14,674 bases of DNA, from assembly GCA_964586355.1 (NCBI GenBank), contig CAZPGO010000007.1, forward strand, positions 1 to 14,674, read 5' to 3'. Below, piece after piece: positions 1 to 14,674 of this stretch. A program made the position numbers and the translations under genes. The notes under the pieces are model-generated. The model had not been told where the DNA came from and did not search any database. It was given only the letters and a program-made list of their open reading frames with translations. How positions within the stretch are numbered: the stretch's first letter is position 1; every line of letters begins with the position of its first letter. This DNA is from an uncultured archaeon. Lineage in GTDB: Archaea > Iainarchaeota > Iainarchaeia > Iainarchaeales > CSSED10-239.

Positions 1-33
1 TTCCGTATAAGAGCTATTAAGCCGACCAAATGA
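1..33 (+). CDS. 3' end of an unidentified CDS entering from upstream (..FRIRAIKPTK*)
   Basis: Frame 1 is open from base 1 to TGA at 31-33. Only 10 codons are visible, so no family can be assigned. A hairpin and T-tract follow directly. Confidence 0.25.
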   Translation, partial: FRIRAIKPTK

Positions 34-66
34 GCGAGAAATTGCTCACTTTTTTCTCTTTTTCTT
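31..66 (+). terminator. Short hairpin plus oligo-T tract, a possible transcription end
   Basis: TGAGC (31-35) pairs with GCTCA (44-48) around an 8-nt loop. T6 (50-55) and more T-rich sequence follow. Archaeal termination typically uses oligo-T tracts. Confidence 0.35.
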
Positions 67-528
67 GTTTTTTGATGATTTTTGTGTGTGCTGGTGTAGA
101 TCTTTTTGCAGAAAACAAATAAGTTCCTTAGATTTTTCTAATTTTTGATAAATTTTAAGAATTTTCTTTGTTTTTGAAAGATTTTTTTGTTTATTTGATT
201 TTTGGATAGTTGTTTGGGTGAATTGATCTAGGGTAGATGAGATCTTTTGTTTGTGTTGTTTTTATGTATAACAAAAATACTGATCTATAGACTAGTTATG
301 TAGAAGTCGAGCTTAGAAGAAAATATTTTTTTGATAATCTAAACAGTTTTCTTTATTTTTGTTTTTAATCTGTAAAAATATTTTTTTTAATAGTTTTATT
401 TTTTAAATTCTGTTATTTGTATACATAACACCTTAGTTTATTCTTTAATCTCTTTAGAAAAATTCGAAACTATATAAAAAGTATTGTTTTCTAATATTTA
501 TAGATGTAATAAAAAAAATTGAGAAAAA

Positions 529-1271
529 ATGATCTTAACAGAAAACACTATTGTTCAACAAATATCAGAAAATATTTCTTCTTTGAAATTACCTACTGAT
601 ATGAAAATCTTTTTTGTTGACAAATATGTTTTTCCTGATGGTTTTGAAATTACTGCAAGCTCTAGAGAAAAAAATATCTGTTCTTTCACATAATGGAGAA
701 GGTGTTGGTATATTTCAATTTTCTGCTAAAAAGGTTATTATTTCGGGATTAAAGAGTAATTATGCTAATGAACCCATAACAAGAACACTAGATTTTGTTC
801 AAGGGATTAAAAAATTAACAGCTGGTGCTCCATTTCTTAAGGGGTGGCAAGAAATAATAGTTAATTCATTTATTTTATCTATATACTACTCTTCCGGTTT
901 TAAAAAAAAACCGAAGAACAAAAGTAAGATATGGCGAATTTATTCCTTTTAAGTTTGGGGAAGATCGAAATGTTGAAAGAAAAAGAATCTTAGAAGATTT
1001 AGTCAAAGAATTTGATAAAATAAAAAGTATTAGTCCAAGAAACCCTAGGCTATTTGTGTTAAAGAATCAAATTTTAATTCTTGAAAATAAAATAAGGTTT
1101 GTTAATTCTATAAGGGATAGATATTTTGATAAAAAGGGCTATCTTAATCCAAATAAAGAAAGAGTTAAACAAATTTTTAAAATATATTCTCAAACTAAAG
1201 AACCAAAACATTTTATTTATAAGAAACCAAAAACAGCAAAAAAAAATTTAGTGCCTAAAAGAAGAAAATGA
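529..1271 (+). pseudogene. Unknown-function gene interrupted by two +1 frameshifts at poly-A runs; either a pseudogene or homopolymer sequencing errors
   Basis: ATG is at 529, and frame 1 is open to TAA at 691-693. Frame 2 continues to 952 (this is the 614..952 track ORF). Frame 3 is open from 861 to TGA at 1269-1271 and contains the 1056..1271 track ORF. The frame switches coincide with an A7 run (668-674) and an A9 run (902-910). Removing one A at each gives a single ORF of about 245 codons with normal, non-low-complexity sequence. I recognise no family. Confidence 0.45.
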
Positions 1272-1480
1272 TTTCGTAAAAAATACAAGAAGCATCATCA
1301 ATTTTTTCTAGAAATTTTTAGGTTTGTTTTTTTATTAAAATATCCTTAGGGTAATTCCTGTATGTATAGTGTGTTTAGAATCTATTTTTAATTTTATTTG
1401 GTTTGGAATTTAAATCTGATATATCTATTATTTAATGTCCAATTTTTTGTGATTTTTATTTGTTTGCTTTTATAATCCAT
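1272..1480 (-). pseudogene. Decayed 3' fragment of a nitroreductase-family gene, paralogous to 3294..3836
   Basis: The nucleotide sequence is colinear with 3290 to about 3500 at an offset of about 2019-2020 nt. Shared cores are tagggtaattcctg (1347-1360 and 3366-3379) and gtgtttagaatc (1371-1382 and 3390-3401). The reverse translation reads DSKHTIHTGITLRIF* against DSKHAIVAGITLGYSNEK.. in the intact gene, so it is stop-disrupted. Similarity fades beyond about 1480, and that end coordinate is approximate. Confidence 0.55.
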
Positions 1481-1734
1481 TTATTTAAAGAGCTAATTTT
1501 TTTAATATTTTTTTCTATTATTTTAGGATTTTTCTCTAAAACTTTATATCTGTGTTTTTTATTTAATGAATATATACGAGCTCTATAAACTAGAGATCTA
1601 TTCTTTCTTTTTCGATATATTTTTATTTCTTTTTATTTTAGATTACTTTATTAAAAAAACAAATTAAAAACCTTTATTTATAGTTTAAAAGATAAACTAC
1701 GAAGAAATTAGTTTTAAATAAGAAGTGATATTAA

Positions 1735-3288
1735 ATGCCACCCTTTAAAGGTCCAAAAAAAAGACAAGCAGAAAGAAAATCAGTTTCTCCAATTTTTGAA
1801 AAAAGCAATAATAAGAAAGCTCCTAAAAATAAACAAAAAAAGAGTTACGAGGAAAGATTTGCTGAAAAAATAGGTGACAGAGGTAAAAAAAGATTAAATA
1901 GTTTGATTAAAGAATGGTTACAAAAATATGACATAGATGTTTTATCTTATACTAAAGATTACTCAAAAATTAATGAAATTAGAAAATTATTAAAAACAAA
2001 TGATAAATATTTCACAGAGATAGGAAAAACACCCCAAAGATATTCCATAGAAAATGAATTAAAGGGGCTTATAAAACATTATTCTCATTATGGAATTGTT
2101 AAAAGTATTTTGAAATTTAATCTAGATATTCATACTTTAATGGAAACCAGAAAAATAATTGAAGAATTTGAATCTGATTTACTTAATAGTAATATCCCAA
2201 AAAAGGATATCTCTAGATTTTATGCTAAAAAAATTTCTTTTTTAGCTTTAGGTGTTTCAGAGGTTTTATATAGTAGACCTAATATAACTCAATTGCAAGA
2301 AATTAGAAAATTACTTAAAAATGTTGATGTTAAATATAAGGAATATTTTTTGAGTGTGTGTGTTGCTAAAACACTAAGTTTTTATCGAGATATTAGTCCT
2401 GAGAAATTAAGATTATATTCTACAGAGATATTAAATGCATCAAAAAAAACAGGTTGTTTTTATGACATTTCTATTGACATTGAAAAAGATGTTAGATATA
2501 CTATGCAACAACAGCCTTCAATGATATTATATGCTTTTGAAATTTATTATGATTTTCCAAAATTTTGTTTTTTCAGATTTCCTAAATTTAAATTGTTTTA
2601 TTCTGGTTTAAATATTCTATTAAAATCGAGACCAAATTTAGAAAAACTAAAAATATATTTAAATGAATTAAAAATAATGGAAGAAAGATACTTAAAAGAA
2701 GGAGATGTAGATTTTGAGGAAAGAAATAAGCAAAACTTTGTAGAGCACTTAAAAAAATTAACCCCTTTTTTTAGAAGGGCTGATATTTATAAAAAAGAGG
2801 TCTATCAAAGATATGAAAATTTAGAATCTATATTTAACAAAATAACCCCAGTATCTTTTGATCTAACATTTGGAGAATTTTTAGGAATAAAACAACTTTC
2901 TAATTTAAAAAAAATCGGTGTTATAAGACGTAATAGGGAAACAATAAAATATAAACTAAATTGTAAAGAAGATAAAGATGTTAGCGCAGATAATTTTGGA
3001 TTTAATCTGTCTAATCAATCAATGTTTTTAGAGGCTGGTCCAAGTGTTGGCATGTTATTTAGGCCTTCTGAGGTTTTTATAAAAGTTTGGGATGGTGTGC
3101 CAAATGAATTTAAACCAATTATTTTTTTTCATGAATTAAAAGAATATTTAAATTCTGGAAATCACAAAATAGCAAGAAACTTTGAAATTGCTTATGCCAG
3201 TAAATTTTTATCTCCTCAAAAATTTAAAGAATATATTTTGTTTTGTCAAAAAAATAATGCTTTTAGAAATGATCATCAAATAAAATAA
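1735..3288 (+). CDS. Hypothetical protein, 517 aa, with a Lys-rich basic N-terminus and three internal repeats
   Basis: This is a long ORF with ordinary coding composition and an SD-like aagtgat a few nt upstream of the ATG. The repeat motifs are SKINEIRKLLKTNDKY, SRPNITQLQEIRKLLKNVDVKY and SRPNLEKLKIYLNELKIMEERY, spaced about 108-118 aa apart. The first two are visible at DNA level: gaaattagaaaatta(t/c)ttaaaaa at 1975-1996 and 2299-2321. I recognise no family. Confidence 0.8.
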   Translation: MPPFKGPKKRQAERKSVSPIFEKSNNKKAPKNKQKKSYEERFAEKIGDRGKKRLNSLIKEWLQKYDIDVLSYTKDYSKINEIRKLLKTNDKYFTEIGKTPQRYSIENELKGLIKHYSHYGIVKSILKFNLDIHTLMETRKIIEEFESDLLNSNIPKKDISRFYAKKISFLALGVSEVLYSRPNITQLQEIRKLLKNVDVKYKEYFLSVCVAKTLSFYRDISPEKLRLYSTEILNASKKTGCFYDISIDIEKDVRYTMQQQPSMILYAFEIYYDFPKFCFFRFPKFKLFYSGLNILLKSRPNLEKLKIYLNELKIMEERYLKEGDVDFEERNKQNFVEHLKKLTPFFRRADIYKKEVYQRYENLESIFNKITPVSFDLTFGEFLGIKQLSNLKKIGVIRRNRETIKYKLNCKEDKDVSADNFGFNLSNQSMFLEAGPSVGMLFRPSEVFIKVWDGVPNEFKPIIFFHELKEYLNSGNHKIARNFEIAYASKFLSPQKFKEYILFCQKNNAFRNDHQIK

Positions 3289-3293
3289 AGATT

Positions 3294-3836
3294 TTATAAA
3301 AAAGAAGAAACATCTTCAATTTTTTTTCTAGATGTTTTTATACTTATTTTTTCATTAGAATACCCTAGGGTAATTCCTGCAACTATTGCGTGTTTAGAAT
3401 CAATTTTAATTTTTCCTTTAAACTTAGATCTATAATTTTCAAAATGCCCGATCCAACAAGAAGAGATCCCTTTATTTTGTGCTGATAGTAAAATGTTTTC
3501 AATAGATGCTCCAATACTTAATAGATAGCTATTTTTCTGATCATTACTTTCAAGATCTTTTTTATTAATACAAATAAAAATTATTGCTTGTGTATTTCCT
3601 AGGTTATAATAAAAATGATTTTTGTCTATAATTTTTTTTTTATCTCTTATTGTTTTTTTGATGTAATCAAGTTGATCTTTTTTATTAATAATATAAAAAA
3701 ACCATGGTTGAACGTTGTTGTTAGAAGGAGCTTTTGTTCCATCTGTTATTAATTGTTTAAGAACACTCAACCTGATTTTTTTGTTTTTAAAAGATCTTGT
3801 GCTTTTTCGATCATCTATTATTTTTTTAAATTCCAT
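3294..3836 (-). CDS. Nitroreductase-family (FMN-dependent) oxidoreductase, 180 aa
   Basis: The N-terminal DDRKSTRSF (RxSxRxF-type) and APSNNNVQPW motifs are characteristic of the nitroreductase fold. The size is typical for the family. Confidence 0.85.
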   Translation of the reverse strand: MEFKKIIDDRKSTRSFKNKKIRLSVLKQLITDGTKAPSNNNVQPWFFYIINKKDQLDYIKKTIRDKKKIIDKNHFYYNLGNTQAIIFICINKKDLESNDQKNSYLLSIGASIENILLSAQNKGISSCWIGHFENYRSKFKGKIKIDSKHAIVAGITLGYSNEKISIKTSRKKIEDVSSFL

Positions 3837-3876
3837 ATTTATTTCTGTCCAAGTATTTGTGCAAATAAGGTCTTGT

Positions 3877-4356
3877 TTAATAATGTTGATAATCTGAAAT
3901 TGTACAATTGTTACATGAATTATTATAGCAAGAGCCTCTTATTATGGTAAATCCAACCATTTTCAGATTAGTTGCATAGCAATTCTGTTCTGTATTATTA
4001 TGTCTACAATGACCACAGATATAGGTGTATGTTTCAATAATGCTTTTTTCATCTGTGTTTGGATGTTCGTCTTTTAATTTGTCGAAAGCTTTTTCTATAG
4101 ATAGTGTTATGCTTTCTAAATCTTCTTTTTTAAATTTATCTGGATTTGTTTTATATTCATAATAAATATCTGTGTTTTCATTATAAATTAGTTTATTATT
4201 TTCATCATATAGATCACTATAAGATTTCTGATTTTTAAATAAAATATTTTTTGCATTTCCTATTGTTGTTGGGGAAATTAAAAAACCACCAATTATTGTA
4301 CCAATCACAAAAGCTATAATAACCCAAATGATTAATTTTTTATTTTCATTTTTCAT
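3877..4356 (-). CDS. Exported or membrane-anchored cysteine-rich protein, 159 aa, sharing its leader with 4410..4685
   Basis: The N-terminus MKNENKKLIIWVIIAFVIGTIIGGFLISPTTIGNA has a basic n-region, a 20-aa hydrophobic core and a GNA signal-peptidase-like site. The C-terminal 50 aa contain 6 Cys (CGHC..C..C..C..C). An SD-like gagagg/aggaaa lies upstream. Confidence 0.75.
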   Translation of the reverse strand: MKNENKKLIIWVIIAFVIGTIIGGFLISPTTIGNAKNILFKNQKSYSDLYDENNKLIYNENTDIYYEYKTNPDKFKKEDLESITLSIEKAFDKLKDEHPNTDEKSIIETYTYICGHCRHNNTEQNCYATNLKMVGFTIIRGSCYNNSCNNCTISDYQHY

Positions 4357-4368
4357 TTTTTTCCTCTC
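4251..4368. repeat. 118-bp leader cassette, copy 1 (RBS plus codons 1-35 of the 159-aa gene)
   Basis: It matches 4580-4697 with 3 mismatches in 118 nt by my base-by-base comparison. Identity stops exactly after codon 35 (Ala of GNA). Confidence 0.9.
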
Positions 4369-4409
4369 TGTTCACATTCAATAATTTGTGAGGTTAATTT
4401 TTATTTTAA

Positions 4410-4685
4410 TTAAGTCCATATAGCTCCTGACCATACCCCGTCACGACAACAAGCACAACCTAAATTTGGTGTTTCTGTACAAAATTCATGATCGGGACAA
4501 TAACAGTGTCCATTTGTAGAGTGCTCTGATTGAATAGTAATTTCTATTGGTTTATTGTTTTTTCTAGAAAATATTGTGTTTGCATTTCCTATTGTTGTTG
4601 GGGAAATTAAAAAACCACCAATTATTGTTCCAATCACAAGAGCTATAACAACCCAAATGATTAATTTTTTATTTTCATTTTTCAT
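4410..4685 (-). CDS. Exported or membrane-anchored cysteine-rich small protein, 91 aa, sharing its leader with 3877..4356
   Basis: The 35-aa leader is the same as in the neighbour, with 2 aa differences. The mature part would be 56 aa with 6 Cys (GHCYC..C..CACC). It has the same upstream SD-like sequence. Confidence 0.75.
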   Translation of the reverse strand: MKNENKKLIIWVVIALVIGTIIGGFLISPTTIGNANTIFSRKNNKPIEITIQSEHSTNGHCYCPDHEFCTETPNLGCACCRDGVWSGAIWT

Positions 4686-4697
4686 TTTTTTCCTCTC
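4580..4697. repeat. 118-bp leader cassette, copy 2 (RBS plus codons 1-35 of the 91-aa gene)
   Basis: It matches 4251-4368 with 3 mismatches in 118 nt. The flanking sequence on the mature-protein side is unrelated. Confidence 0.9.
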
Positions 4698-4777
4698 CGT
4701 TTTTTAATTTTTATAAAAAATATGTGTTAAAATAATTTATGTGTGTTATGTTTTAAATTTTTGTTCAGTATTTTATG

Positions 4778-6016
4778 TTATTTCCTTTTTGTTTTTTTAT
4801 TATGTGTTATTTGTTTATTTCTTTTTTCAATTATAAAAAAATATATTGTGGTTGTGATATTTGTAATTAAAATAACCAATAATGCAACCCCAATAATTTT
4901 TTCAGTAAAAACATTATTTATTCCTACACTGCTTGGATATGTTGCTAATACTGCTGCTGCAAGACCTCTAGTGTGCATTGAAACCATTAGATCTTTATCT
5001 TTTTTTTCTATGTTTCTAAAAAACAACATTTTAGTAATTAATATTCTTATTACAATTATTAATGACACAATTGCTAGAGTAATTAAAATGACATTTAAAT
5101 TAATATAACTAAAATCAATAATAACACCTAAATATATAAAAAAAAAGGTTTTTATAACAAGAGAGATCTCTGTTTGAAAATGGTGTATTGTTTTATCTAG
5201 TGTAAAATCTTTCATTTTAAATGTTTTAAAAATATCAGAAGCATTACCTAAAACCAAACCAAAAATAAGAACACAAAATGCTCCGTTACCCCCAAGGTAT
5301 TCTGTTGCTGCATATAATAAAAATAAAAAGGACAGTGTTAAAAAATAGCTAAATCCTTTAACCTCAAGAGAATCTCTTAAAATTCTAGACCAAATAATTC
5401 CTCCAATCAATCCAATTACTGCAGCTAATGCAAATGCTGAAAAGACGCCTTGAATTATTAGTTTCGTATTTGCTGTTTGTGAGATAATAATACCGACAAT
5501 TGTAACTGTTGAAATAACACCTAAAACATCAGTAATTGCTGATTCTAAACTCATTATTGTTTTTGTTTTGTCATTTGCACTTGATTTAGTGATTAATGGT
5601 ATTATTATTTCTGAGCTGGTTCCACCAATAATAACACCTAATAATATACCATATATTAATTCAAAACCAAATATAAAATGTAATATTAAGGCCGATAATG
5701 TTGCGGTTAATAAAAATATTAGTATAGTAAATAAAAAAGCATTTTTTATCTCTGTTATTACTTTGTAAAAATTAAGATACAAACCACCATCAAAAATTAA
5801 AACAATTAAAGCAACTGCTGCGAAAATGGCTGTGTAGTTTCTTAAACTATGTATTATAGATTCTGGAATAACATTAAATATTGGTCCTATTAACAGACCA
5901 ATTAAAATTAAAATTAAAATATCTGAGACTTTTGTTTTTTTAAAAAATAGATTTCCTAAAAAACCTAAAAGAAATATTCCTGATATAAATACTAAAAATA
6001 TTAATGGATTTATCAT
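4778..6016 (-). CDS. Monovalent cation:proton antiporter (CPA family, NhaP/NHE-like Na+/H+ exchanger), 412 aa
   Basis: The protein is polytopic (about 11-13 hydrophobic helices) with a typical Na_H_exchanger N-terminus (..FLGNLFFKKTKVSDILILILIGLLIGP..) and an FDGGL motif. LESAITDVLGV resembles the ES..ND.. signature of CPA1 exchangers. There is no C-terminal regulatory domain. Confidence 0.85.
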   Translation of the reverse strand: MINPLIFLVFISGIFLLGFLGNLFFKKTKVSDILILILIGLLIGPIFNVIPESIIHSLRNYTAIFAAVALIVLIFDGGLYLNFYKVITEIKNAFLFTILIFLLTATLSALILHFIFGFELIYGILLGVIIGGTSSEIIIPLITKSSANDKTKTIMSLESAITDVLGVISTVTIVGIIISQTANTKLIIQGVFSAFALAAVIGLIGGIIWSRILRDSLEVKGFSYFLTLSFLFLLYAATEYLGGNGAFCVLIFGLVLGNASDIFKTFKMKDFTLDKTIHHFQTEISLVIKTFFFIYLGVIIDFSYINLNVILITLAIVSLIIVIRILITKMLFFRNIEKKDKDLMVSMHTRGLAAAVLATYPSSVGINNVFTEKIIGVALLVILITNITTTIYFFIIEKRNKQITHNKKTKRK

Positions 6017-6131
6017 TTTTTATCATCTGCATATATTATTAATAATTATTTTTTATTGCAAAATGTTTATAAAATGCTATTTACGTAAAAATTTTTAATT
6101 TTCAGAGTGTTTTTTGGTCCAACTTTTTGTG

Positions 6132-6290
6132 TTATTTGTTTTTATTAAAATAACCCATTTCTGTAAGTTTGATTAATACTAGTTGTTTAACAACATCTGC
6201 TCTTGAACAACCAATTTTGTCTACAAGCCCATCTATTATTTTTATTTGATCTTTTGAAAAATACGGGCTAATTCTTGCATCTGATGACAT
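6132..6290 (-). CDS. Ribbon-helix-helix (CopG/Arc/MetJ-like) DNA-binding protein, 52 aa; not in the supplied ORF track
   Basis: My reverse-strand translation is MSSDARISPYFSKDQIKIIDGLVDKIGCSRADVVKQLVLIKLTEMGYFNKNK*. It shows a beta-strand (ISPYFS), helix (KDQIKIIDGLVDKIG) and helix (SRADVVKQLVLIKL) pattern typical of RHH. The gene is divergent from the SAM synthetase gene. Confidence 0.6.
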   Translation of the reverse strand: MSSDARISPYFSKDQIKIIDGLVDKIGCSRADVVKQLVLIKLTEMGYFNKNK

Positions 6291-6314
6291 TTTTTATTCA
6301 CCTTTTATTTTTTG

Positions 6315-6398
6315 GTTACTATTATAGTGTGTTTATAGTAACTAATGAGTGATAGCATTTATAAATATTTCCTTGCACTAATTAGTTACTAATGAGTG
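6315..6398. promoter_or_regulatory. Divergent promoter region with operator-like repeats flanking a TATA-like box
   Basis: The inverted repeat is GTTACTAT (6315-6322) with ATAGTAAC (6335-6342). The 14-nt direct repeat is GTAACTAATGAGTG (6338-6351) and GTTACTAATGAGTG (6385-6398), with 1 mismatch. The two direct-repeat copies bracket TTTATAAATA (6358-6367). An SD-like GGAG at 6412-6415 precedes the ATG at 6421. Confidence 0.45.
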
Positions 6399-6420
6399 TT
6401 AAAATAAAAACGGAGATATT

Positions 6421-7341
6421 ATGAACAAAATAGAGATTATTGAAAGAAAAGGGATTGGTCATCCAGATACAATTGCAGATAATTTGTCTGAAGAATTATC
6501 CAAAAAATTATTAAAAGAATATAGATCTATTTATAGATCACCAAAACACTATAATGTTGATAAAGTTATGGTGTGTGCGGGAGAGTTAGAAAAAGCTGTT
6601 TTTAAGAAATCAGTTAAAATTGTTTTTGCTGGTCAATATACAAAAATTAATGAAATTAATGAAATATTAGATCGCGTTGTTAAAAAAATATTGGCATTTG
6701 AGATAAAAAATGGATTAAAATATAAAGTCTATAATTTTTTAAATCAAGGAAGTTTAGATCTGAAAGACATATTTTTAAATAAAAAATCTAATGATACAAG
6801 TTTTGCTGTTGGAACCGTTGAAACAAAAAATGAAAAATTAGTAAAAAAATTAGGTTTTTATATAGATTCTCTTCACAAAAATTTTAAAAAAATAGGAACT
6901 GATAATAAGATCATGTTTATTGATGATGGCGAATCTAAACAGATCTATATAGCTCTTGCTTTTTTAAATAAATTTAAAAGTGCTAAAGAATATTTTGATT
7001 ATAAGATAGATCTTGAGAGTAAATTAAGAAAAAAGTTTAAAATTAATGATCTTTTTATTAATGTCGGGGATACAGAAGAGATACAATTTATAACAAAAAC
7101 AGGTACCTCTTTAGAGATGGGTGATAGTGGTGCAACTGGTAGAGGGAACAGAAGAAATGGATTAATAACTCCTTGTAGACCAATGACTTTAGAGGCATAT
7201 TGTGGAAAAAATGATGTTACTCATATAGGTAAGATATATCAGGATTTGTCTTTAGAAATTGCAAAAAAGAGAGATAAAAATATTTTGTTATTAAACAAGA
7301 TTGGCGAAGATATAAATAATCCAATGATCTTTGAAATTTAA
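6421..7341 (+). CDS. mat: Archaeal-type S-adenosylmethionine synthetase (methionine adenosyltransferase), compact 306-aa form
   Basis: [19 protein letters not shown] matches the archaeal MAT N-terminal signature (ERKGxGHPDxxxD). [47 protein letters not shown] matches the conserved TGTSAE.GDDG..GRGNR.NGLITP.RPMS.EA..GKNPV.HVGKIY block as I recall it from Methanocaldococcus MAT. Confidence 0.9.
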
Positions 7342-7351
7342 ATATTTTTTT

Positions 7352-7500
7352 AAAGGTTGTGTAATTTTCTTATTTTGAGTTTCTCTTTTCTGAATTTATT
7401 TCTTAAAAACTTTTTTTGTTTTTATAAAAAAACACTAGTTTTCTTTTTCAGATTTCTTATAAGTATAGCTCTCATGCTAAGTTTGTCTTACACAACCTTT
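7352..7500. repeat. 149-bp element bounded by a perfect 13-bp inverted repeat (MITE-like element or long hairpin)
   Basis: AAAGGTTGTGTAA (7352-7364) and TTACACAACCTTT (7488-7500) are exact reverse complements. The interior is T-rich and non-coding. I see no clear target-site duplication. Confidence 0.5.
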
Positions 7501-7834
7501 GGTTGTTATTTTCTGATCACATGTTTTCTCACATTTTTCTATAGTTGTTTTTTATTTAAAAAGAAATGATTTTTGAGGTGGGTTAAATGCTCCGATTTAT
7601 TTCTTTAAAATTAAAAAACATAAATATTGTGTCTTAGAAACAGGGGGTGTTTTTGTAACAGGGGTCTTGTCCAGTGGTTTTTTCTAAGATTTTTCTAAAA
7701 AGAGGCTTACAAATCTTATAAATCATTTAATTTTAAACAATTTTTTTTTTAAAAGAGAGAGTAATAAACATTTATAAACACTTTTATGTTTTATATTGTT
7801 GTATGTTAACTACTTAAAAAAGATGTGATGTAAA

Positions 7835-8470
7835 ATGGTATTATATAAATATTGTCCAAGATGTTGTTCATTGGATGTAATTAAAGAAAACAATTCAGAA
7901 AATTATAGGTGTAGATCTTGTAATTATGTAGGTCAAGTTAATAGTGATAGTATTGATCAAATTAATGCTTTGAGGGTTAAAGTAAAAGGTGGTATAAATT
8001 ATAGTAATTATACCCCAGCAACATCAATGCAAAAAAATACTCCACAACCAACCCCGAAACCAATCTCATCAACACAACCTGGTGTTGAGGGTAGGGATTA
8101 TGAAATTATTAGAAAAAAGGAACCGGTTTTAGAAACTGAAAATCTAGATGTGGCAGATAATAAAACCTCTGAAAATTTAGAAAACTCTTCCAACTCTAAA
8201 GAAAGTACTTCTGAAATATCTAAATTAGAAACTACAGAAGTTACTGAGGAAAGATCTGCTTTTGAACAAAAAGTTGTGTCTGAAAAGAGAACTTTACCAG
8301 AAGAGAACCTAGCCTCAGTTCCTGTAGAGCCAAAAAAAGAAATAAAAGATAATCCATTTAAATCAGATGATAGTGCCTTGCCACCTCATGGTCTAAGACC
8401 AAAAGAAACAAAGTCTTTAAAAGAAAGATTAAGAGAGAAAGGTGCTGGAAAAGATTGGGACCTATTATAA
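7835..8470 (+). CDS. Zinc-ribbon protein with a long disordered acidic, Ser/Thr/Pro-rich tail, 211 aa
   Basis: The N-terminal CPRC-x14-CRSC gives four Cys in a zinc-ribbon arrangement. The remaining 170 aa or so are low in hydrophobic residues and rich in E/S/T/P/K. An SD-like gtgatg lies just upstream of the ATG. Confidence 0.65.
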   Translation: MVLYKYCPRCCSLDVIKENNSENYRCRSCNYVGQVNSDSIDQINALRVKVKGGINYSNYTPATSMQKNTPQPTPKPISSTQPGVEGRDYEIIRKKEPVLETENLDVADNKTSENLENSSNSKESTSEISKLETTEVTEERSAFEQKVVSEKRTLPEENLASVPVEPKKEIKDNPFKSDDSALPPHGLRPKETKSLKERLREKGAGKDWDLL

Positions 8471-8705
8471 AAATATTTTAACAACTGGTGTTTTTTTAGT
8501 CTAAATTATTCAAACAGTTGTGCCTATTTATTTTTTTATTTAGTGTGGTTTTTTTATTATTTTTAGATATAATTATAGAGAGCTTTTTAGTAGAAAACAA
8601 AAAGATTTCTGATACTATTTCTTTTGAAAGTAAAAGACCAGTAGTAATTAGTGATCTAAAAGTATTTATATTGTTAAAGTTAGAAACCTAGTAAACAAAT
8701 AATTT

Positions 8706-9560
8706 TTATATTTTTTCCCAGGTCTTTTTTAAAAATAAGCTGTCGTTAACAATGTCTGGGCTTTCACAAATAATAGTTCCCTTAACATCATTTTCTTTAA
8801 GTTTCTCTAAAATTTTTTTATAAGGTAGATCTGCATCTTTAAACAAAAGATGTTTTCTTTCTCCTTTTTTACCATACTCTATTCCTGACATGTGAATATG
8901 CATTCTATTTAAAATGTCTGGATAACTTTTTAGTTTGTCAAAAACTTTTGTGATCTCTTTAGGATCTTTAAACAAACCATTTTCTCTTGCATGAAGGTGT
9001 GCAAAGTCTATTACAGGTAAGAATCTTTTTTTGTCTAAATGATCATATAAATATAACACTTCCTCTAAAGATCCAATCTGTGTTTTCTTGCCAACAGTCT
9101 CAGCACCAAAAACTGTTTTACTGTTTGTTTTTTCAAAAATATTTTCTATTTCTTTTTGGACATTTTCTAAAGCTATTTTTGGCTCTGTTTTTAAAAAGTA
9201 GCCAACATGTACCACGACTACATTTGCGTTAATTTTTTGTCCAATATTTAGTGAATCTAGTATGTATCTATGACTATTAATTACTTTCTGTTCTTCATTG
9301 CTATTAAGATTAATAAAGTAAGGTGCATGTATACTAAGAGCAATATTTTTGTTAATAGCGTTTTCTTTAATTTCTTTGATTTTTTCTTGACTTGATCTTT
9401 TAAGATAGACTTGTCTTACAAATTCTATTTCTAACGCAGAAAGAGAAATATTAGAGAGTTCTAAGATAGCATCAGCTGTAGGATTTTTAGAGTTTTGAGG
9501 AATACTAAGATCTGATCCCCCAAACCCTGCAGTCCCGAAATGAAGTTTATTAAATTTCAT
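8706..9560 (-). CDS. nfo: Endonuclease IV-like AP endonuclease (xylose isomerase-like TIM barrel), 284 aa
   Basis: The motif order matches Nfo metal ligands: SIHAPYFINLNS, VVVHVGY, AETVGKK, VIDFAHLHA, HIHMSGIEYG..ERKH and IICESP. Confidence 0.75.
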   Translation of the reverse strand: MKFNKLHFGTAGFGGSDLSIPQNSKNPTADAILELSNISLSALEIEFVRQVYLKRSSQEKIKEIKENAINKNIALSIHAPYFINLNSNEEQKVINSHRYILDSLNIGQKINANVVVVHVGYFLKTEPKIALENVQKEIENIFEKTNSKTVFGAETVGKKTQIGSLEEVLYLYDHLDKKRFLPVIDFAHLHARENGLFKDPKEITKVFDKLKSYPDILNRMHIHMSGIEYGKKGERKHLLFKDADLPYKKILEKLKENDVKGTIICESPDIVNDSLFLKKTWEKI

Positions 9561-9755
9561 TTATTCTTCTTTTTCTATCCTTATGCAGGATACTGGACAA
9601 ATATCTGCTGCTTTTTGGTTACAACCAATTTCATCTACTTCTGTTTTCTTTGGTTTTGCTTTTGCATCTCCTAGTTCCCAGTTTTCTGGACAGACAGAAA
9701 CACATGCCCCACATCCTATACAACTATCTAAGTCTTGTTTTATTTTATATTTCAT
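9561..9755 (-). CDS. Small single-cluster [4Fe-4S] ferredoxin, 64 aa
   Basis: CIGCGACVSVCP plus a distal C..CPVSCI resembles the Pyrococcus/Thermotoga-type monocluster ferredoxin layout. Its stop codon (9561-9563) abuts the nfo-like start codon (9558-9560). Confidence 0.85.
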   Translation of the reverse strand: MKYKIKQDLDSCIGCGACVSVCPENWELGDAKAKPKKTEVDEIGCNQKAADICPVSCIRIEKEE

Positions 9756-9860
9756 ATTTTTTCCTTTTTATTTTAAGTTAAGTATATTATTTCTAAACAA
9801 ACAACTATTTAAATATTTCTTATATCTATTTTTGTATATAAATATATTTTGTGTAAAAAT

Positions 9861-12098
9861 ATGGCTGATAAAAATAACCCTTTTAGAAAACCTGTGGAAA
9901 ATCCAGGAGAGATCTACAAAGCTATATCTGTAGATACCAGAGATTTTGGTGTTTCTGAAAAGCTTACTAGAAAAAAGGAAGATTGGTTTGTTAGATTTTG
10001 TAAAAAGATTTATGAGAAGTTTCCTAATTTAGGTGGATCTAATGCAAAATATTCTGATAATTATGCAAAGGCTATAAATTTTCTTGATTGGGATCTAAGA
10101 CCTGAAGAGTATAATGCTGCTGTAAAGTTTAGTTTATTTTTATGTGTTTTAATTGTCGGTATTTTAGTTACCCTTGGTTTTCTGTTTTTACTAAAACCTC
10201 TTAGTAAAATGTTTGGCACTACTATTTTTGCTATGGTTATGGTTTTTGGTATTCCTTTAATAATTGGAATCTATAGTTTTGTTGTTATAAAAAATTACCC
10301 TTTATCCAAAGTTGCTGATGAAAAAGTAAAGGCACTAACTTTTGTTCCTGAAACTTTAGGTTATATGATAATGTCTATGAAGCTAGTACCAAACCTAGAA
10401 AAAGCAATTGAGTTTGCTGCAGATCATGGTCATGGAAAGATTGCTGATGATCTTAAAAAGCTTCTTTGGGAAGTTAAGGTTGGTATTAAAAACAGTGTTG
10501 CTGAGGCCTTAGATGATCTTGCTTATAGATGGGGAGATGTATCTAATGAGCTAAAAAAAGGTCTTATGAAGATTCGTGCTTCTGTAATTGAGACTTCTGA
10601 GAGTAAAAGATTTCAGTTGCTTGATCAAACTATGTCTGATACTTTAGCTTCTATTAAAAATACTCTTGAGGATTATGCAAGAGGTTTAAATCAACCTGCA
10701 ATGATTATGTTTTATTTAGGTGTGTTGTTGCCTTTATTATTAATTATTGTTTTGCCTGTTGGTTCTGCTTTTTCTGGATCTGCTCTTGCTAAACCGATTT
10801 ATCTAATATTAATTTATAACATTGGTTTACCTATTGGTTGTTTATTATTTGCAAGATATGTAATAAAAAACAGACCAAAGACATATGATCCGCCAAACAT
10901 TCCTGATAATCATCCAAAGTTACCTCCTAAAAATTCTGCTAGAATTGGTAAGTTAAATATTAATATTTTTATTCTCTTAATAATTATTTTAGTTTCAGGA
11001 GTTTTTGCAAGTATTTATCTTCAAACTAATTTTGGAAAAACTAGAGAAAGTGTTTTAGAGTATAATGATTATGATGTAGTTAATCCTGGTTTTCATTGTG
11101 ATGCAGATGAGTTAAGAACCTTAGAAAGTAATCCTAAATACATGTGTAGATCTGAAGTTGAATTTTGGCAACAGCCTGAAAATGATATTACTCCTTATTA
11201 TATTATTTATGGTCTTTTGTTGACTTTTTCTGCTATTCTTTCTTTTTGGTTATATTTTACTAATGTTTATAAAAGAAAAATACAGTTAGAATCTGAAAGA
11301 ATGGAGGGCGAGTTTAAGGATGCTTTGTATGTTATTGCTAGTAGATTAGGTGAAAATAAACCTATTGAAGATGCATTAGAACACACAAGAAAATTTCTTC
11401 CAAAGTCTTTAATTGCAAAAGATGTTTTTGGAAAGGCTATTGATAATATTAGAATAATGGGTCTAACCTTACAATCTTCTTTATTTGATAAAAACTATGG
11501 TGCTCTAAAAAATAACCCTTCAAGAATAATAAACAGTGCTATGCAGTTAATGGTTGATTCTGTGCAATTAGGGGTTTCTGTTGCTGCAAAGACTTTGATG
11601 TCTTATTCTTTGCAATTAAGAAATACTGATGAGGTTAATAAGATGCTTAGTAATTTGGTGTCTGATACAGTTAACACTCTTTCAAGTATGTCAAAGTTTA
11701 TTGCTCCTATTGTTCTTGGTATTACTACTGCTTTACAAAAGATTGTTATCTCAACTTTAACCTCAATCTCAAATAGTGGAACCCTTTCAGACATCTCACA
11801 AATGGCTGAGTCTATTAAGACTGGTGTTAGTGGTGCTGGTATGGGCTCTATAAATACTGGTAACTTAACAAGCTTTGGAGATATTAGTCCTGAGATAATT
11901 AGTCAGATTGCAAGTCCTACTGTGTTTATGATTATTGTTGCCATATATGTTATACAGATTGTTATTATTATGACTTATTTTACTACAAAAATTGAACAAG
12001 ATAATAACACTTTAGTAAAGTTAAGAATAGCAAAGACTTTACCAATTGCTGTGGTTTTATTTATTATTACTACAATTTTAGCAAATTTGATTTTTTAA
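9861..12098 (+). CDS. FlaJ/TadC/PilC-like type IV pilus platform membrane protein, 745 aa from ATG 9861
   Basis: There are two copies of a helical cytoplasmic module of about 120-135 aa (roughly aa 150-285 and 476-615), each followed by TM helices. The total is about 9 TM segments, which is the GspF/T2SSF-domain architecture. The track start at 9849 is TTG, and I prefer the ATG at 9861 (MADKNNPF..). TATA-like TATATAAATA lies at 9835-9844. Pilin-like genes follow directly. Confidence 0.7.
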   Translation: MADKNNPFRKPVENPGEIYKAISVDTRDFGVSEKLTRKKEDWFVRFCKKIYEKFPNLGGSNAKYSDNYAKAINFLDWDLRPEEYNAAVKFSLFLCVLIVGILVTLGFLFLLKPLSKMFGTTIFAMVMVFGIPLIIGIYSFVVIKNYPLSKVADEKVKALTFVPETLGYMIMSMKLVPNLEKAIEFAADHGHGKIADDLKKLLWEVKVGIKNSVAEALDDLAYRWGDVSNELKKGLMKIRASVIETSESKRFQLLDQTMSDTLASIKNTLEDYARGLNQPAMIMFYLGVLLPLLLIIVLPVGSAFSGSALAKPIYLILIYNIGLPIGCLLFARYVIKNRPKTYDPPNIPDNHPKLPPKNSARIGKLNINIFILLIIILVSGVFASIYLQTNFGKTRESVLEYNDYDVVNPGFHCDADELRTLESNPKYMCRSEVEFWQQPENDITPYYIIYGLLLTFSAILSFWLYFTNVYKRKIQLESERMEGEFKDALYVIASRLGENKPIEDALEHTRKFLPKSLIAKDVFGKAIDNIRIMGLTLQSSLFDKNYGALKNNPSRIINSAMQLMVDSVQLGVSVAAKTLMSYSLQLRNTDEVNKMLSNLVSDTVNTLSSMSKFIAPIVLGITTALQKIVISTLTSISNSGTLSDISQMAESIKTGVSGAGMGSINTGNLTSFGDISPEIISQIASPTVFMIIVAIYVIQIVIIMTYFTTKIEQDNNTLVKLRIAKTLPIAVVLFIITTILANLIF

Positions 12099-12111
12099 AT
12101 TTAGATAAATT

Positions 12112-12651
12112 ATGATTTTTAAAAAACTAAACCAAAAAGGAGATAGTGAAGCATTTGAATCTTTTAGGATGTTGATTGCTTTTGTTTTGGCTGCTGCTAT
12201 TTTGGTTATTATTATTAATATGGTTAATAATGTTAATGAAAAATCAGTACAGATAAGCACACAAAAATTATCAGAAGGTGTGATCTCTGGTGTAAAAAGT
12301 GTCGGAACAAGTGCAAGAATTCCTTTTGTGATATCTGATCTTTTACTTAGGGGTACTATTGATAGAAGATCTATTCAAAACATTTCTGGTATGAATAAAG
12401 AATGTGTTTTTTTTATTGCTGGGGCTGGTGTGGATAAGAGTGATAATGGAGAGTATATTTCTATAAAGGGTACAAAAAAGATGGATGTTTATGTTTATTG
12501 TAATCAAACATCTTCTGGCATAGTTGTGGTAACTAATAATTATCCAGAAGTATCTGAGGATCTTTCTACAGATACTTGTCCAACTTTTTGTGTGTTTTTT
12601 TTTAATGAGAGACCAAATGCAGCTCTTTATGGTTCTGAGGAGTTAGATTAA
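12112..12651 (+). CDS. Pilin-like protein with a class III (prepilin-type) signal peptide, 179 aa
   Basis: MIFKKLNQKG|DSEAFESFRMLIAFVLAAAILVIIINMV has a short basic n-region, a Gly and then about 20 hydrophobic residues. The globular part has 4 Cys. The gene starts 13 nt after the platform gene stop. Confidence 0.6.
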   Translation: MIFKKLNQKGDSEAFESFRMLIAFVLAAAILVIIINMVNNVNEKSVQISTQKLSEGVISGVKSVGTSARIPFVISDLLLRGTIDRRSIQNISGMNKECVFFIAGAGVDKSDNGEYISIKGTKKMDVYVYCNQTSSGIVVVTNNYPEVSEDLSTDTCPTFCVFFFNERPNAALYGSEELD

Positions 12652-12669
12652 AAAAATGTGATTATTAAT

Positions 12670-13164
12670 ATGAGAAATAATATTTTATCAAATATTTTTT
12701 TTATAATATTAGCTATCTTAATTTTAGGTGTTGGTTTTTTGTTAGGTACTTTCATTTTAACTTTTATATTTGTTGTTTTTGTTTTCATGAGTTTTCTTTT
12801 TGTAATTATGTGGTTGTTTAATAATTTTGTTTCTTTGTTTAAAACTAACAGATCTAAGCTATTTTTTAAAGCTTTTTTTTCAATTGTTGTAACTTATGGT
12901 TTTATTTCTTTATTTTGGTTTTTAACTTTTAATTATTTATTAGTTCTTAAAAGTTATGCGGTTTTAATAATTTTATGGGTATTTACTACTATTGTTTTTG
13001 GAACTTTATGGTATTTATTACACATAAAAAAGCAACAATCAAAACCAGTTTATCTTTGGGAGTTAGAAAAGGGGTATCTATTAACTTTTTGGGATCTGTT
13101 AGTTATGTTATTAATTCCATCTCTTATTGTTTTTGTATTTAATAGTATTTATTTGATTATTTAG
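12670..13164 (+). CDS. Phe-rich polytopic membrane protein of unknown function, 164 aa from ATG 12670
   Basis: There are about 5 hydrophobic helices and one short polar loop (HIKKQQSKPVYLWELEKG). The track start at 12658 is GTG, and the first ATG is at 12670. I recognise no motifs. Confidence 0.6.
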   Translation: MRNNILSNIFFIILAILILGVGFLLGTFILTFIFVVFVFMSFLFVIMWLFNNFVSLFKTNRSKLFFKAFFSIVVTYGFISLFWFLTFNYLLVLKSYAVLIILWVFTTIVFGTLWYLLHIKKQQSKPVYLWELEKGYLLTFWDLLVMLLIPSLIVFVFNSIYLII

Positions 13165-13307
13165 TTTTTATAAAAAACATTTTCTGTTTACTTTTTTTAA
13201 ATAATTTTTTTATATTTCTAAAAAGATTACCTTTAAATATATTATGGTAAAATATTTTGTTGTAGATAATATTAGTTATTTCTATAATATATAAAAAGGT
13301 GAAAATA

Positions 13308-13850
13308 ATGATAGATTTTGAACATCTTATGAAAAAATTAAAACTTAATAAAAAAGGTCAAGCGTTTTCAACATTTCAGTTATTGATTGCTGCTGTTGTT
13401 GCTTTGGCTTTACTAGGTGTATTACTTCCAATAATTATGAAGAATGTAGATATTGGAGATAATCCTGAAGAATTAACACAAAGATTAATTAAAACTCAAG
13501 TAGATTCTATAGGTTCTTTAAAATATACAAAAGAAGCTACTTTTAAAAATGGAGATTCTATTTCTGGAGCAACTTTAGCTAATTCAGCAAATTTGGACAG
13601 ATCTGAAGTTTGTGTTTTAAATCCAGAGGGTAGTACATTTGAAGGTAGTATTGGTAGGGTTATTACATATAATAGTAGTTCTTCATTAAAATATAAGATG
13701 GGTGTTTTATGTGATTATTCTGATGAATTAGAGGAATCTGTTGAATATTTTGTTGCAGAAATGCCCGGAAATTCTGATGAATGTTATAGTTTATTAAATC
13801 TAGAAGATGGGAATAAAAAGGTGTGTATAGTTTTTCCAAAGAGAGCATAG
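13308..13850 (+). CDS. Pilin-like protein with a class III signal peptide (KKGQ|AFSTFQLLIAAVVALALLG), about 173-183 aa
   Basis: It has the KGQ motif followed by a hydrophobic helix, and 4 Cys in the globular part. The start is ambiguous among GTG 13299, ATG 13308 and ATG 13329. ATG 13308 sits about 7 nt after the SD-like aaggtga. ATG 13329 would give the short MKKLKLNKKGQ leader typical of class III signals. AT-rich TATA-like boxes lie upstream at 13232-13290. Confidence 0.65.
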   Translation: MIDFEHLMKKLKLNKKGQAFSTFQLLIAAVVALALLGVLLPIIMKNVDIGDNPEELTQRLIKTQVDSIGSLKYTKEATFKNGDSISGATLANSANLDRSEVCVLNPEGSTFEGSIGRVITYNSSSSLKYKMGVLCDYSDELEESVEYFVAEMPGNSDECYSLLNLEDGNKKVCIVFPKRA

Positions 13851-13879
13851 TTTAAATATAAAGAGGAGTTGAGAGCTGT

Positions 13880-14077
13880 ATGAATATTATAAAAAAGATT
13901 ATTAAAGATCAAAGAGCACAAACAGATTCAGCATCTACTCTCTATATGCTTGTTATTGTTGCTATTGTTGCTATTGTCTTAATTGCAGTAATAAAACCAA
14001 TGTTTAGTAGATCTATGAAAACTCAAACAAATTTAGCTAATCTACCTGCAACTCAAGTAAATAATCAGGTTTCTTAG
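13880..14077 (+). CDS. Mini pilin-like or Flp-like protein, 65 aa
   Basis: MNIIKKIIKDQRAQ|TDSASTLYMLVIVAIVAIVLIAVIKP has a basic n-region, then RAQ in place of KGQ, then a hydrophobic helix of about 22 aa and a short polar tail. A strong SD-like gaggag lies 9-14 nt upstream of the ATG. An oligo-T tract follows the stop. Confidence 0.45.
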   Translation: MNIIKKIIKDQRAQTDSASTLYMLVIVAIVAIVLIAVIKPMFSRSMKTQTNLANLPATQVNNQVS

Positions 14078-14080
14078 ATC

Positions 14081-14092
14081 TTTTCTTTTTTT
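14081..14092 (+). terminator. Oligo-T tract directly after the 65-aa gene
   Basis: TTTTCTTTTTTT begins 4 nt after the TAG stop, which fits archaeal oligo-T termination. Confidence 0.4.
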
Positions 14093-14147
14093 ATTAAAAA
14101 CAATTCTTTTTAAAAGTCTTTTTCTTATCTATTTTATAAGAAAAACT

Positions 14148-14674
14148 ATGATTAAAAAAAATTCTCTTAATAAGAGGGGGCAAGTAAGTGCACCTTTTGA
14201 AGTTTTGGTTGCTGTGGTTTTAATGGGCTTTGTTATTGTTGCTGGTTCTTTTGCTCTAAGTAATCTTTCTCAAAATGTTTGTATTGGTAATAAAAGATCT
14301 GATCTAAGTAATTTTAAGGAGGCTTTAAGGGATGTTGTTTTAGGTTCTGATCTTGTAATAAGAAACATTAATTTTCAAACAAAGGCTTGTTTTAATGAAA
14401 GGCATGAAACTATACAATTAAACACATATTCTGACCCTTCTAGATGTACTGCTTATTGTGGTGGTGGTACTACTTGTATGCTTTTAGAGTATATTTATGA
14501 AGATTTAGATAAGTCTATAAGAATGCAGCCAATTGATCCTATCTGTATGGATCTTACAACTAGTATTGAGTTTGGAACAGATAGTGAGTGTTTAGTTTTA
14601 GATGATGATACAGATCTTTGGGAAGCAATAGATCCCTCTGGAACATCAATAAGACCAGGTATATATAAAATATT
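14148..14674 (+). CDS. Pilin-like protein with a class III signal peptide, partial (runs off the window end; not in the ORF track)
   Basis: My translation is MIKKNSLNKRGQ|VSAPFEVLVAVVLMGFVIVAGSFALSNLSQNVCIGNKRSDL...SRCTAYCGGGTTCMLLEY...PGIYKI, with no stop in 175 codons. It has a canonical KRGQ plus hydrophobic-helix start and at least 8 Cys in the visible mature part. Confidence 0.65.
   Translation, partial: MIKKNSLNKRGQVSAPFEVLVAVVLMGFVIVAGSFALSNLSQNVCIGNKRSDLSNFKEALRDVVLGSDLVIRNINFQTKACFNERHETIQLNTYSDPSRCTAYCGGGTTCMLLEYIYEDLDKSIRMQPIDPICMDLTTSIEFGTDSECLVLDDDTDLWEAIDPSGTSIRPGIYKI

Follow-up and report, generated by a model that had tools for sequence, protein, structure and literature searches.

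Genes A and B, two adjacent open reading frames (ORFs) on the minus strand of a 14,674-nucleotide (nt) stretch of DNA from an uncultured archaeon (GTDB lineage Archaea; Iainarchaeota; Iainarchaeia; Iainarchaeales; CSSED10-239), probably belong to a lineage-specific family in which a signal module for the general secretory (Sec) pathway is carried by diverse Cys-rich cargos, and the 5' ends of this pair appear to have been homogenised by recent recombination. The stretch (assembly GCA_964586355.1, contig CAZPGO010000007.1, positions 1 to 14,674 of the forward strand) was analysed at its full length and is referred to here as the window. In the proposed scheme, a conserved module of ∼40 residues (the leader) would be attached to many different, mostly small, Cys-rich C-terminal domains (the cargos). 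The module would act as a Sec-type signal peptide that inserts N-in, signal peptidase I (SPase I) would most likely cut after a G-x-A motif, and the cut would free disulfide-bonded proteins, which would reach the cell surface or the medium. The released proteins may serve as secreted effectors, adhesins or antimicrobials. As far as sequence can tell, the leader marks an undescribed, lineage-specific multigene family of uncultivated AT-rich archaea; no archaeal family of this kind was found in the literature searched.

A near-identical 5' module in two adjacent genes

An earlier note on this DNA had described two minus-strand ORFs sharing 118 nt with three mismatches, and this was confirmed by both a repeat search and an ATG-anchored comparison. 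The segments 4232-4372 and 4561-4701, which join the 5' ends of genes A and B, form the largest direct repeat of the window, and the two genes differ at three of 118 nt (97.5% identity) between -12 and +106. Read base by base, the block spans -13 to +107. As had been claimed, it comprises the Shine-Dalgarno (SD)-like region (GGAGAGG/AGAGAGG) and codons 1-35, which end in GNA and encode MKNENKKLIIWV[I/V]IA[F/L]VIGTIIGGFLISPTTIGNA; it also contains seven A in a row. The three leader differences are two replacements (I13V and F16L) and one synonymous change (GGT/GGA). The identity ends as abruptly as the note had stated, since the flanks are only 25% (-80..-13) and 36% (+107..+276) identical against a random expectation of 31% in the window. 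In related leader genes, GGAGATGA is present at the SD-like position and reads as an in-frame 'NGDE' before Met in many loci. The coordinates of all these features are shown in Table 1.

Behind the leader (residues 1-35 in both proteins), the mature parts differ (BLASTP E=6.5 between the two cargos), and each contains the six Cys that had been counted. Cargo A comprises 124 amino acids (aa) with a predicted helical mid-part and all six Cys within the last 46 residues (framework C-2-C-8-C-16-C-4-C-2-C, beginning CGHC), and cargo B comprises 56 aa (CYC-x5-C-x7-CACC; framework C-1-C-5-C-7-C-1-CC).

The possibility of an assembly artefact, such as a duplicated read region, was ruled out by three independent assemblies from different samples (L001, L002 and L003), which are 100% identical across the A/B region. 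The short contig L003 starts within the upstream leader copy, which points to a real repeat, where assemblers typically break.

Table 1. Features of genes A and B and of their shared 5' module (positions in the window)
Feature	Positions	Strand	Basis
Gene A (159 aa)	3877-4356	minus	ORF listing
Gene B (91 aa)	4410-4685	minus	ORF listing
Upstream cassette copy: SD-like site and gene B codons 1-35	4580-4697	minus	115/118 identical to 4251-4368
Downstream cassette copy: SD-like site and gene A codons 1-35	4251-4368	minus	repeat comparison
SD-like GGAGAGG, 7 nt upstream of gene B ATG	4693-4699	minus	read from sequence
SD-like AGAGAGG of gene A, equivalent site	4364-4370	minus	read from sequence
Hydrophobic helix and TTIGNA site of gene B, residues 8-35 (LIIWVVIALVIGTIIGGFLISPTTIGNA)	4581-4664	minus	family logo
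Helix and TTIGNA coding region of gene A, equivalent to gene B residues 8-35	4252-4335	minus	family logo

Extent of the leader family and diversity of its cargos

To date, the leader has been found on many proteins beyond this locus, which answers the search for further copies that the earlier note had proposed. When 1.84 billion cluster representatives were searched exhaustively with a leader profile (HMMER), 129 proteins were obtained at E<=1e-3 (73 of them at E<=1e-10), ranging from 34 to 599 aa and carrying the leader at residues 1-42 in nearly all cases. A scan of species-representative genomes revealed it on five more proteins with other C-termini in one archaeal metagenome-assembled genome (three found directly and two by a six-frame scan of the same loci), a word-indexed profile search gave further small leader-bearing proteins, and a metagenome scan added 13 leader loci. 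Five or more copies per genome are possible. The notion of a conserved export module on divergent Cys-rich cargo is thus supported and appears to be general, with at least 129 representative clusters and 71 cargo groups. No matches to the leader were found in the viral contigs of IMG/VR, and a viral origin is therefore unsupported.

Neither the leader nor the cargo of either window protein reached the curated cut-off of any Pfam or NCBIfam family, and scanning 122 family members against both collections (E<=0.001) revealed no common family, with isolated matches in one to four members only. The two cargos do not look like ordinary paralogues of a known family, being detectably homologous neither to each other nor to Pfam or NCBIfam families. 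The mature domains that the earlier note could not recognise thus remained without a curated family in the profile searches, and the structure predictions it had suggested yielded low-confidence AlphaFold models (pLDDT 49 for gene A and 53 for gene B, from alignments of two sequences), in which the N-terminal helix alone is credible.

The cargos have a median length of 92 aa (range 33-564), and 121 of them fall into 71 BLASTP clusters (E<=1e-3), including 55 singletons. Of all cargo residues, 3.6% are Cys, a share that rises to 6.0% in cargos of up to 130 aa, compared with 1.0% in the other window proteins. The number of Cys is even in 101 of the 113 Cys-containing cargos (odd in 12; the remaining eight have none), and 2 and 6 are the most frequent counts rather than multiples of 4. 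Such counts point to intramolecular disulfides and an extracytoplasmic location rather than to zinc sites, and the cargos are probably disulfide-bonded. Several Cys frameworks recur, namely CxC..C..Cx(1-2)CC, CCC-7-C-3-C-1-C, CC..C-3/4-C and CC..CC.

Some individual cargos should also be mentioned. P0048 (158 aa) has two tandem C-1-C-5-C-17-C-2-CC domains behind one leader, which indicates that intragenic duplication of small Cys modules is possible. The largest cargo cluster contains 19 members with cargos of 40-250 aa (P0028, P0040, P0042, P0049, P0055, P0056, P0084, P0096, P0100, P0103 and others), many of which end in Y-A-C-[LI]-x-x-D-G-x-L-[FY]-[RK]-S-x-x-P-C-[NR], a probable C-terminal disulfide loop. 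The C-terminus of P0005 (...EIGRASCRERVCLYV) is presumably a recurrent artefactual translation in metagenome proteins, and this cargo was disregarded.

Probable recombination between the leaders of genes A and B

An orthologue of gene A (A', protein P0002; 75% identical) is present on the 763-nt contig L004, and it provides a reference for the history of the pair. Between A and A', the leaders are 83.8% identical in nucleotides (proportion of synonymous differences, pS, 0.25; of nonsynonymous differences, pN, 0.136) and the cargos 82.4% (pS 0.46, pN 0.115), whereas the leaders of A and B within the same genome are 97.1% identical (pS 0.04, pN 0.025). The A/B leaders are thus closer to each other than the A/A' leaders are, which suggests that they were homogenised after the two lineages had split, and the gene conversion proposed in the earlier note gains support from this comparison. 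A nucleotide matrix of 19 leaders likewise placed A and B as mutually nearest, followed by A'. The PTTIG variant is common to all three; on B-framework cargos elsewhere, the leader instead reads NATTG or PMTTTG.

The simplest reading of these data would be a recent gene conversion of B's leader by that of A, or an unequal crossover. The near-identity of the pair would then have arisen from recent recombination of adjacent paralogues and not from unusually strong selection on the pair, the A-type leader (PTTIG variant) being the apparent donor. The sharp edges of the repeat would be due to a recombination tract limited to the ∼120 nt of the SD region plus leader, the sole homologous segment. 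The window pair would accordingly offer a clean example of how homology-limited gene conversion yields sharply bounded, identical 5' modules. Elsewhere in the family, leaders track orthology (91% identity between T_315 and S_315, 98% between T_81 and L022), and recent conversion is not family-wide. In two close orthologue pairs, to which the pS/pN analysis was limited (distant pairs are unreliable because the cargo alignment is saturated), the synonymous divergence of the leader was about two-fold below that of the cargo (p=0.03 and 0.09).

Anatomy of the leader and type of signal

In the leader, a charged N-terminus is followed by a hydrophobic helix of 20 residues (LIIWALVALVIGVIIG) and then by a near-invariant TTG-x-A. 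Its consensus runs M-x-K-E/N-x-K-x-K, then L-I-I-W-A-x-V-A-L-V-I-G-V-I-I-G-x-x-I-T-N, then x-T-T-G-N/Q/K-A, then K-x-A-L, and the helix contains A-x3-G-x3-G together with a conserved Trp. In a MAFFT alignment of 122 members, G23 and G33 (gene A numbering) are invariant, and G19, A15 and A35 are conserved in at least 90%. In the family logo anchored on G-x-A, G is present at -3 in 121 of 121 members and A at -1 in 112, while T is found in 96 at -4 and in 92 at -5; conservation fades after +4, with an information content of less than 1 bit from +5. The tripartite layout of the window leaders, that is MKNENKK (net +2), the uncharged L8-I27 and SPTTIGNA, is common to 121 family members. The site itself reads G-N-A↓K and G-N-A↓N in the window; K, T, N and R are the four commonest +1 residues across the family (mostly K), and neither window protein has a Pro at +1, which would speak against an SPase I site. 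The leader therefore fits a Sec signal peptide with an SPase I site, given the n-h-c layout and the match to the (-3,-1) rule, and we infer that export is Sec-dependent and that cleavage occurs after GNA.

Two other kinds of signal were also considered. No Cys is present at +1, as a lipoprotein lipobox (Cys following [LVI][ASTVI][GAS]) would require, and no Arg is present in residues 1-35 of either window protein, which excludes a twin-arginine translocation (Tat) signal.

Several points weigh against the scheme proposed here. With regard to the leader, the 20-residue hydrophobic stretch is long enough for a permanent transmembrane anchor, the near-invariant A-x3-G-x3-G and the conserved Trp are not needed by ordinary signal peptides, and the weak sub-threshold matches, LapA_dom (E=0.007) and ZapG (in 4 members), are uncleaved N-terminal anchors. 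With regard to recombination, a recent partial duplication that set the 5' end of A on another 3' part would be indistinguishable from gene conversion, and the lower synonymous divergence of leaders could be explained by constraint at the nucleotide level. With regard to the cargos, the homology of cargo B to leader-bearing proteins elsewhere, for which the Cys framework is the evidence, is unproven, and the source habitats, which judging by the sample names appear to be anoxic, would make extracellular disulfides less certain.

The main rival to a cleaved Sec signal peptide is an uncleaved N-terminal signal anchor of type II topology, in which the Trp and the A-x3-G-x3-G zipper would pack mutually or with a membrane partner. 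It is a serious one because, apart from the helix just described, the leaders are ∼85-90% identical where the cargos share only 22-33% (in a group of ∼280-aa cargos), exceeding what a generic signal peptide needs, and because the ordinary-looking signal peptides of other exported proteins in the same genomes (L009 5630-5917; L005 3465-4301) are shorter, unrelated and not conserved. On the other hand, the strongest conservation of the module lies at the small -3 and -1 residues after the polar T-T and is lost soon after G-x-A, a pattern that marks an SPase I site and has no obvious role in an anchor. On balance, an anchor appears possible but not probable. If it were true, the family would consist of surface-displayed, membrane-tethered Cys-rich ectodomains and not of released peptides, and the recombination history would be unchanged.

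A second alternative is that these proteins are non-canonical type IV pilin-like subunits, in which a prepilin peptidase would cut before the helix, the helix would act as the scaffold for polymerisation and the variable C-termini would decorate a filament. A conserved helix with variable C-terminal domains would suit such subunits, for which the conserved H-domain of Haloferax volcanii pilins offers a precedent (PMC4371748), and a type IV pilus-like locus is present in the same window (a TadC/FlaJ-like gene at 9849-12098 and pilin-like genes at 12112-14077). However, prepilin processing needs G, A or S at -1, just before the hydrophobic domain and preceded by a charged residue at -2 (PMC4371748), and the -1 position is K7 in the window proteins (NKK↓LIIW) and mostly K, N or Q in the family, with a subset having S; the leader thus lacks a class III prepilin signal. 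The window's own pilin-like genes do have canonical sites, the conserved TTG-x-A after the helix would be left unexplained, and elsewhere leader genes adjoin unrelated housekeeping genes, not pilus genes. We consider the pilin explanation improbable. As for the pilus-like cluster itself (9849-14077, plus strand), it encodes a polytopic protein of 749 aa that weakly matches T2SSF/TadC, together with three small proteins whose canonical class III signals (QKG↓DSEAFESF, KKG↓QAFSTFQ and a third) contrast with the leader.

Genes A and B and their cargos

The protein of gene A (P0001) was found on seven contigs, and cargo A has been seen only in this protein and its orthologue A'. Comparison of the two cargos gave a pN/pS of 0.25, which indicates a real gene under purifying selection. 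The contrast of leader and cargo that the earlier note had recommended therefore lends no support to its suggestion of diversifying selection where this is testable, that is, for gene A and its orthologue. A GHC motif is indeed present in both A and B, as the note had pointed out, but it is not a conserved feature: A' has CGNC where gene A has CGHC, so that the motif common to A and B is due to chance.

The same motif might suggest that gene A encodes a membrane-anchored, extracytoplasmic oxidoreductase of the thioredoxin/protein disulfide isomerase (PDI) type, with CGHC as active site, which oxidises Cys-rich neighbours such as the product of gene B. Pfam Thioredoxin weakly matches residues 100-141 (E=0.078, 13.4 bits), and residues 108-158 weakly match the CGHC region of PDI A3 (summed E=0.006). 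The former score is nevertheless below the gathering score of 23.5 bits, the per-domain i-E-values from the PDB are 2.5 and 85, and the CxxC is followed by only 42 residues, so that the fold lacks its cis-Pro loop and its beta4-beta5-alpha4 half. The orthologue with its CGNC and the AlphaFold model without a confident fold add to these objections. Membership of cargo A in the thioredoxin/PDI family was thus rejected on the basis of sub-threshold scores, a truncated domain and CGNC in the orthologue, and we regard the oxidoreductase role as very unlikely.

The exact protein of gene B (P0003) is present on six contigs, with a leader score of 77-87 bits against the hidden Markov model (HMM) of the leader. 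No orthologue of gene B was found in the homologue searches. Its cargo shares the Cys framework and spacing class with P0009 and P0061, and nothing more; against an HMM of the CxC..C..CxCC framework group (9 members), it scored 1.7 bits, which was equalled by 270 of 2000 shuffles.

Leader loci, their neighbours and family turnover

A third leader gene of the window genome (W_C149; L002 6461-6910, minus strand) is located ∼4.4 kb beyond window position 1 and encodes a 149-aa protein with six Cys and a different cargo. It follows a 112-aa gene that is also present in a locus of genome S (L005) composed of genes for a ribbon-helix-helix (RHH) antitoxin-like protein, a PIN toxin and a 112-117-aa protein, followed by one or more leader genes. 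This RHH-PIN locus could be recognised in five related genomes, the full order being seen in L005 only and parts of it in the other four, and W_C149 is tied to it via the 112/117-aa gene (L005) and via nitroreductase/gene-X synteny (L012). Four of the five loci (L005, L009, L012 and L013) showed PIN proteins, which are 51-77% identical. The leader genes at this locus have a different cargo in each genome; for example, the leader in L012 is 90% identical to that of the third window-genome copy, but its cargo is of the B-type framework. In the longer term, the family would evolve by tandem duplication, loss and leader-mediated recombination (birth-and-death evolution), as a result of which orthologous loci in relatives would carry the same leader on different cargos.

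Other signs of turnover were observed at individual loci. The ends of L004, the contig that carries A', share an exact 141-nt overlap, which matches the k-mer size given in the name of the contig (unit 622 nt), which indicates near-identical tandem gene copies, a tiny circle being less likely. Leader genes frameshifted inside the leader were found at L009 4154-4347 and at 573-838 of L010/L011 (one gene in two assemblies), and they may be either decaying copies or the result of sequencing errors. A 134-aa CxxC...HH protein with a weak, sub-threshold match to HNH endonucleases adjoins a leader gene in both L012 (1888-2292) and L009 (4580-4984); that it promotes local recombination is a speculative idea.

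No gene recurs across different leader loci. The neighbours are CTP synthase, tRNA synthetases, S-adenosylmethionine (AdoMet) synthetase or the PIN/RHH pair, and thus nothing points to a dedicated partner for processing or transport. The nitroreductase-family gene beside gene A is shared through synteny only. It could be thought of as a modifying dehydrogenase (3294-3836, 40 nt downstream of gene A) if the two genes encoded precursors of ribosomally synthesised and post-translationally modified peptides (RiPPs) or class II bacteriocins, whose leader would be bound by modifying enzymes or a transporter; a conserved leader with a hypervariable Cys-rich core does resemble RiPP precursor families, but this explanation is scarcely credible, as the leader spans the membrane as a hydrophobic helix, where precursors of RiPPs or double-glycine bacteriocins would have a soluble leader ending in GG/GA, the cargos reach 560 aa, no YcaO, radical SAM, LanM or C39-peptidase transporter is present within the window, the neighbours do not recur, and the nitroreductase is missing at most other leader loci, its recurrence in L012 reflecting synteny.

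The window as a whole (GC content 25%) is chromosomal and archaeal. It has an archaeal-type AdoMet synthetase and pilin-like genes with class III signals beside a TadC/FlaJ-like membrane protein, and neither an Rfam nor a tRNA scan of it gave any hit. A relic of ∼120 nt of the nitroreductase 3' end (1277-1395 vs 3295-3414; 80% identical, E=1e-26, with stops) lies on the far side of a 517-aa orphan ORF (1735-3288), whereas the nitroreductase gene of L012 sits immediately beside the neighbouring gene. The 517-aa gene thus seems to have come in through an insertion or duplication in which the end of the nitroreductase gene was copied. Further upstream, three overlapping or adjacent plus-strand ORFs at 529-1271 (529-693, 614-952 and 1056-1271) correspond to a single gene that is intact in a relative, where L012 2916-3659 encodes 247 aa that match no Pfam family. 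They probably represent a pseudogene, because the independent assemblies L001 and L002 show the same ORFs.

Implications and comparison with known systems

Very little is known of what uncultivated small archaea secrete or display. If export takes place as proposed, the ∼40-residue TTG-x-A leader would be a sequence handle with which metagenomes can be searched for exported, Cys-rich proteins that lack annotation. Should the cargos prove to be effectors, adhesins or antimicrobials, they would be candidate mediators of archaeal cell-cell interaction and would supply new disulfide-rich peptide scaffolds. A more far-reaching idea, which we put forward tentatively and rather doubt, is that a clade of small, probably host-dependent (DPANN-like) archaea uses the leader as a dedicated handle for both sorting and recombination. 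The leader would direct hyper-diverse, rapidly exchanged, disulfide-knotted peptides and larger adhesin-like domains to the surface or host-contact site, and would let cargos swap, duplicate and be deleted via leader copies. A DPANN affiliation is suggested by the GC content of 25%, the gene content and the habitats.

Several known systems resemble the family in part. In Gram-positive bacteria, the Sec-signal motifs YSIRK-G/S and KxYKxGKxW are common to otherwise unrelated surface proteins within a lineage and are presumed to target these to a specific pathway or site of secretion. The leader has no sequence similarity to these motifs, its h- and c-regions being conserved instead of the n-region, and the signal-peptide models of Pfam and NCBIfam gave no match to the leader family. 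In the surface-protein genes erp and mlp of Borrelia (upstream homology box plus leader) and vlp and vsa of Mycoplasma, the ribosome-binding region and the signal codons are near-identical among paralogues with differing mature parts, which has been attributed to recombination limited to the 5' end. Those genes encode bacterial lipoproteins with a lipobox Cys, whereas +1 is usually Lys here and no phase-variation machinery was seen. Archaeocins (halocins, for example HalC8) are secreted, Cys-rich and disulfide-stabilised antimicrobial peptides of archaea; halocins are haloarchaeal, some have Tat signals, and they are processed from larger precursors. They differ from the proteins described here in that there is no sequence similarity and in that halocins have no multigene leader family.

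Within the archaea, a parallel is found in PilA1-PilA6 of Haloferax volcanii, which are paralogues with a near-identical H-domain and differing C-termini whose genes are scattered away from the biosynthesis genes (PMC4371748). In both cases, archaeal paralogues have a shared N-terminal hydrophobic domain on different C-terminal parts. The pilins, however, have a class III signal (G/A/S at -1) and keep the helix in the mature protein, whereas the leader family has G-x-A after the helix.

The conotoxin superfamilies provide a close functional analogy: each is defined by its signal sequence, which is highly conserved even in nucleotides, and the mature peptides are short, disulfide-rich and divergent with few Cys frameworks (PMC4278219). 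The leader family likewise combines a conserved leader with 121 cargos in 71 clusters and recurring frameworks (CxC..C..CxCC, CCC-7-C-3-C-1-C and CC..CC), as in the conotoxin and defensin-like superfamilies of animals. It differs in being archaeal and intron-less, in having no evident propeptide, in including cargo domains of 250-560 aa, and in giving no signal of positive selection (pN/pS 0.25, one close pair), so that the likeness is one of analogy and not of homology. Should the leader indeed act as a sorting and recombination handle, conotoxin or variable-surface-protein systems would have in this family a counterpart among the archaea.

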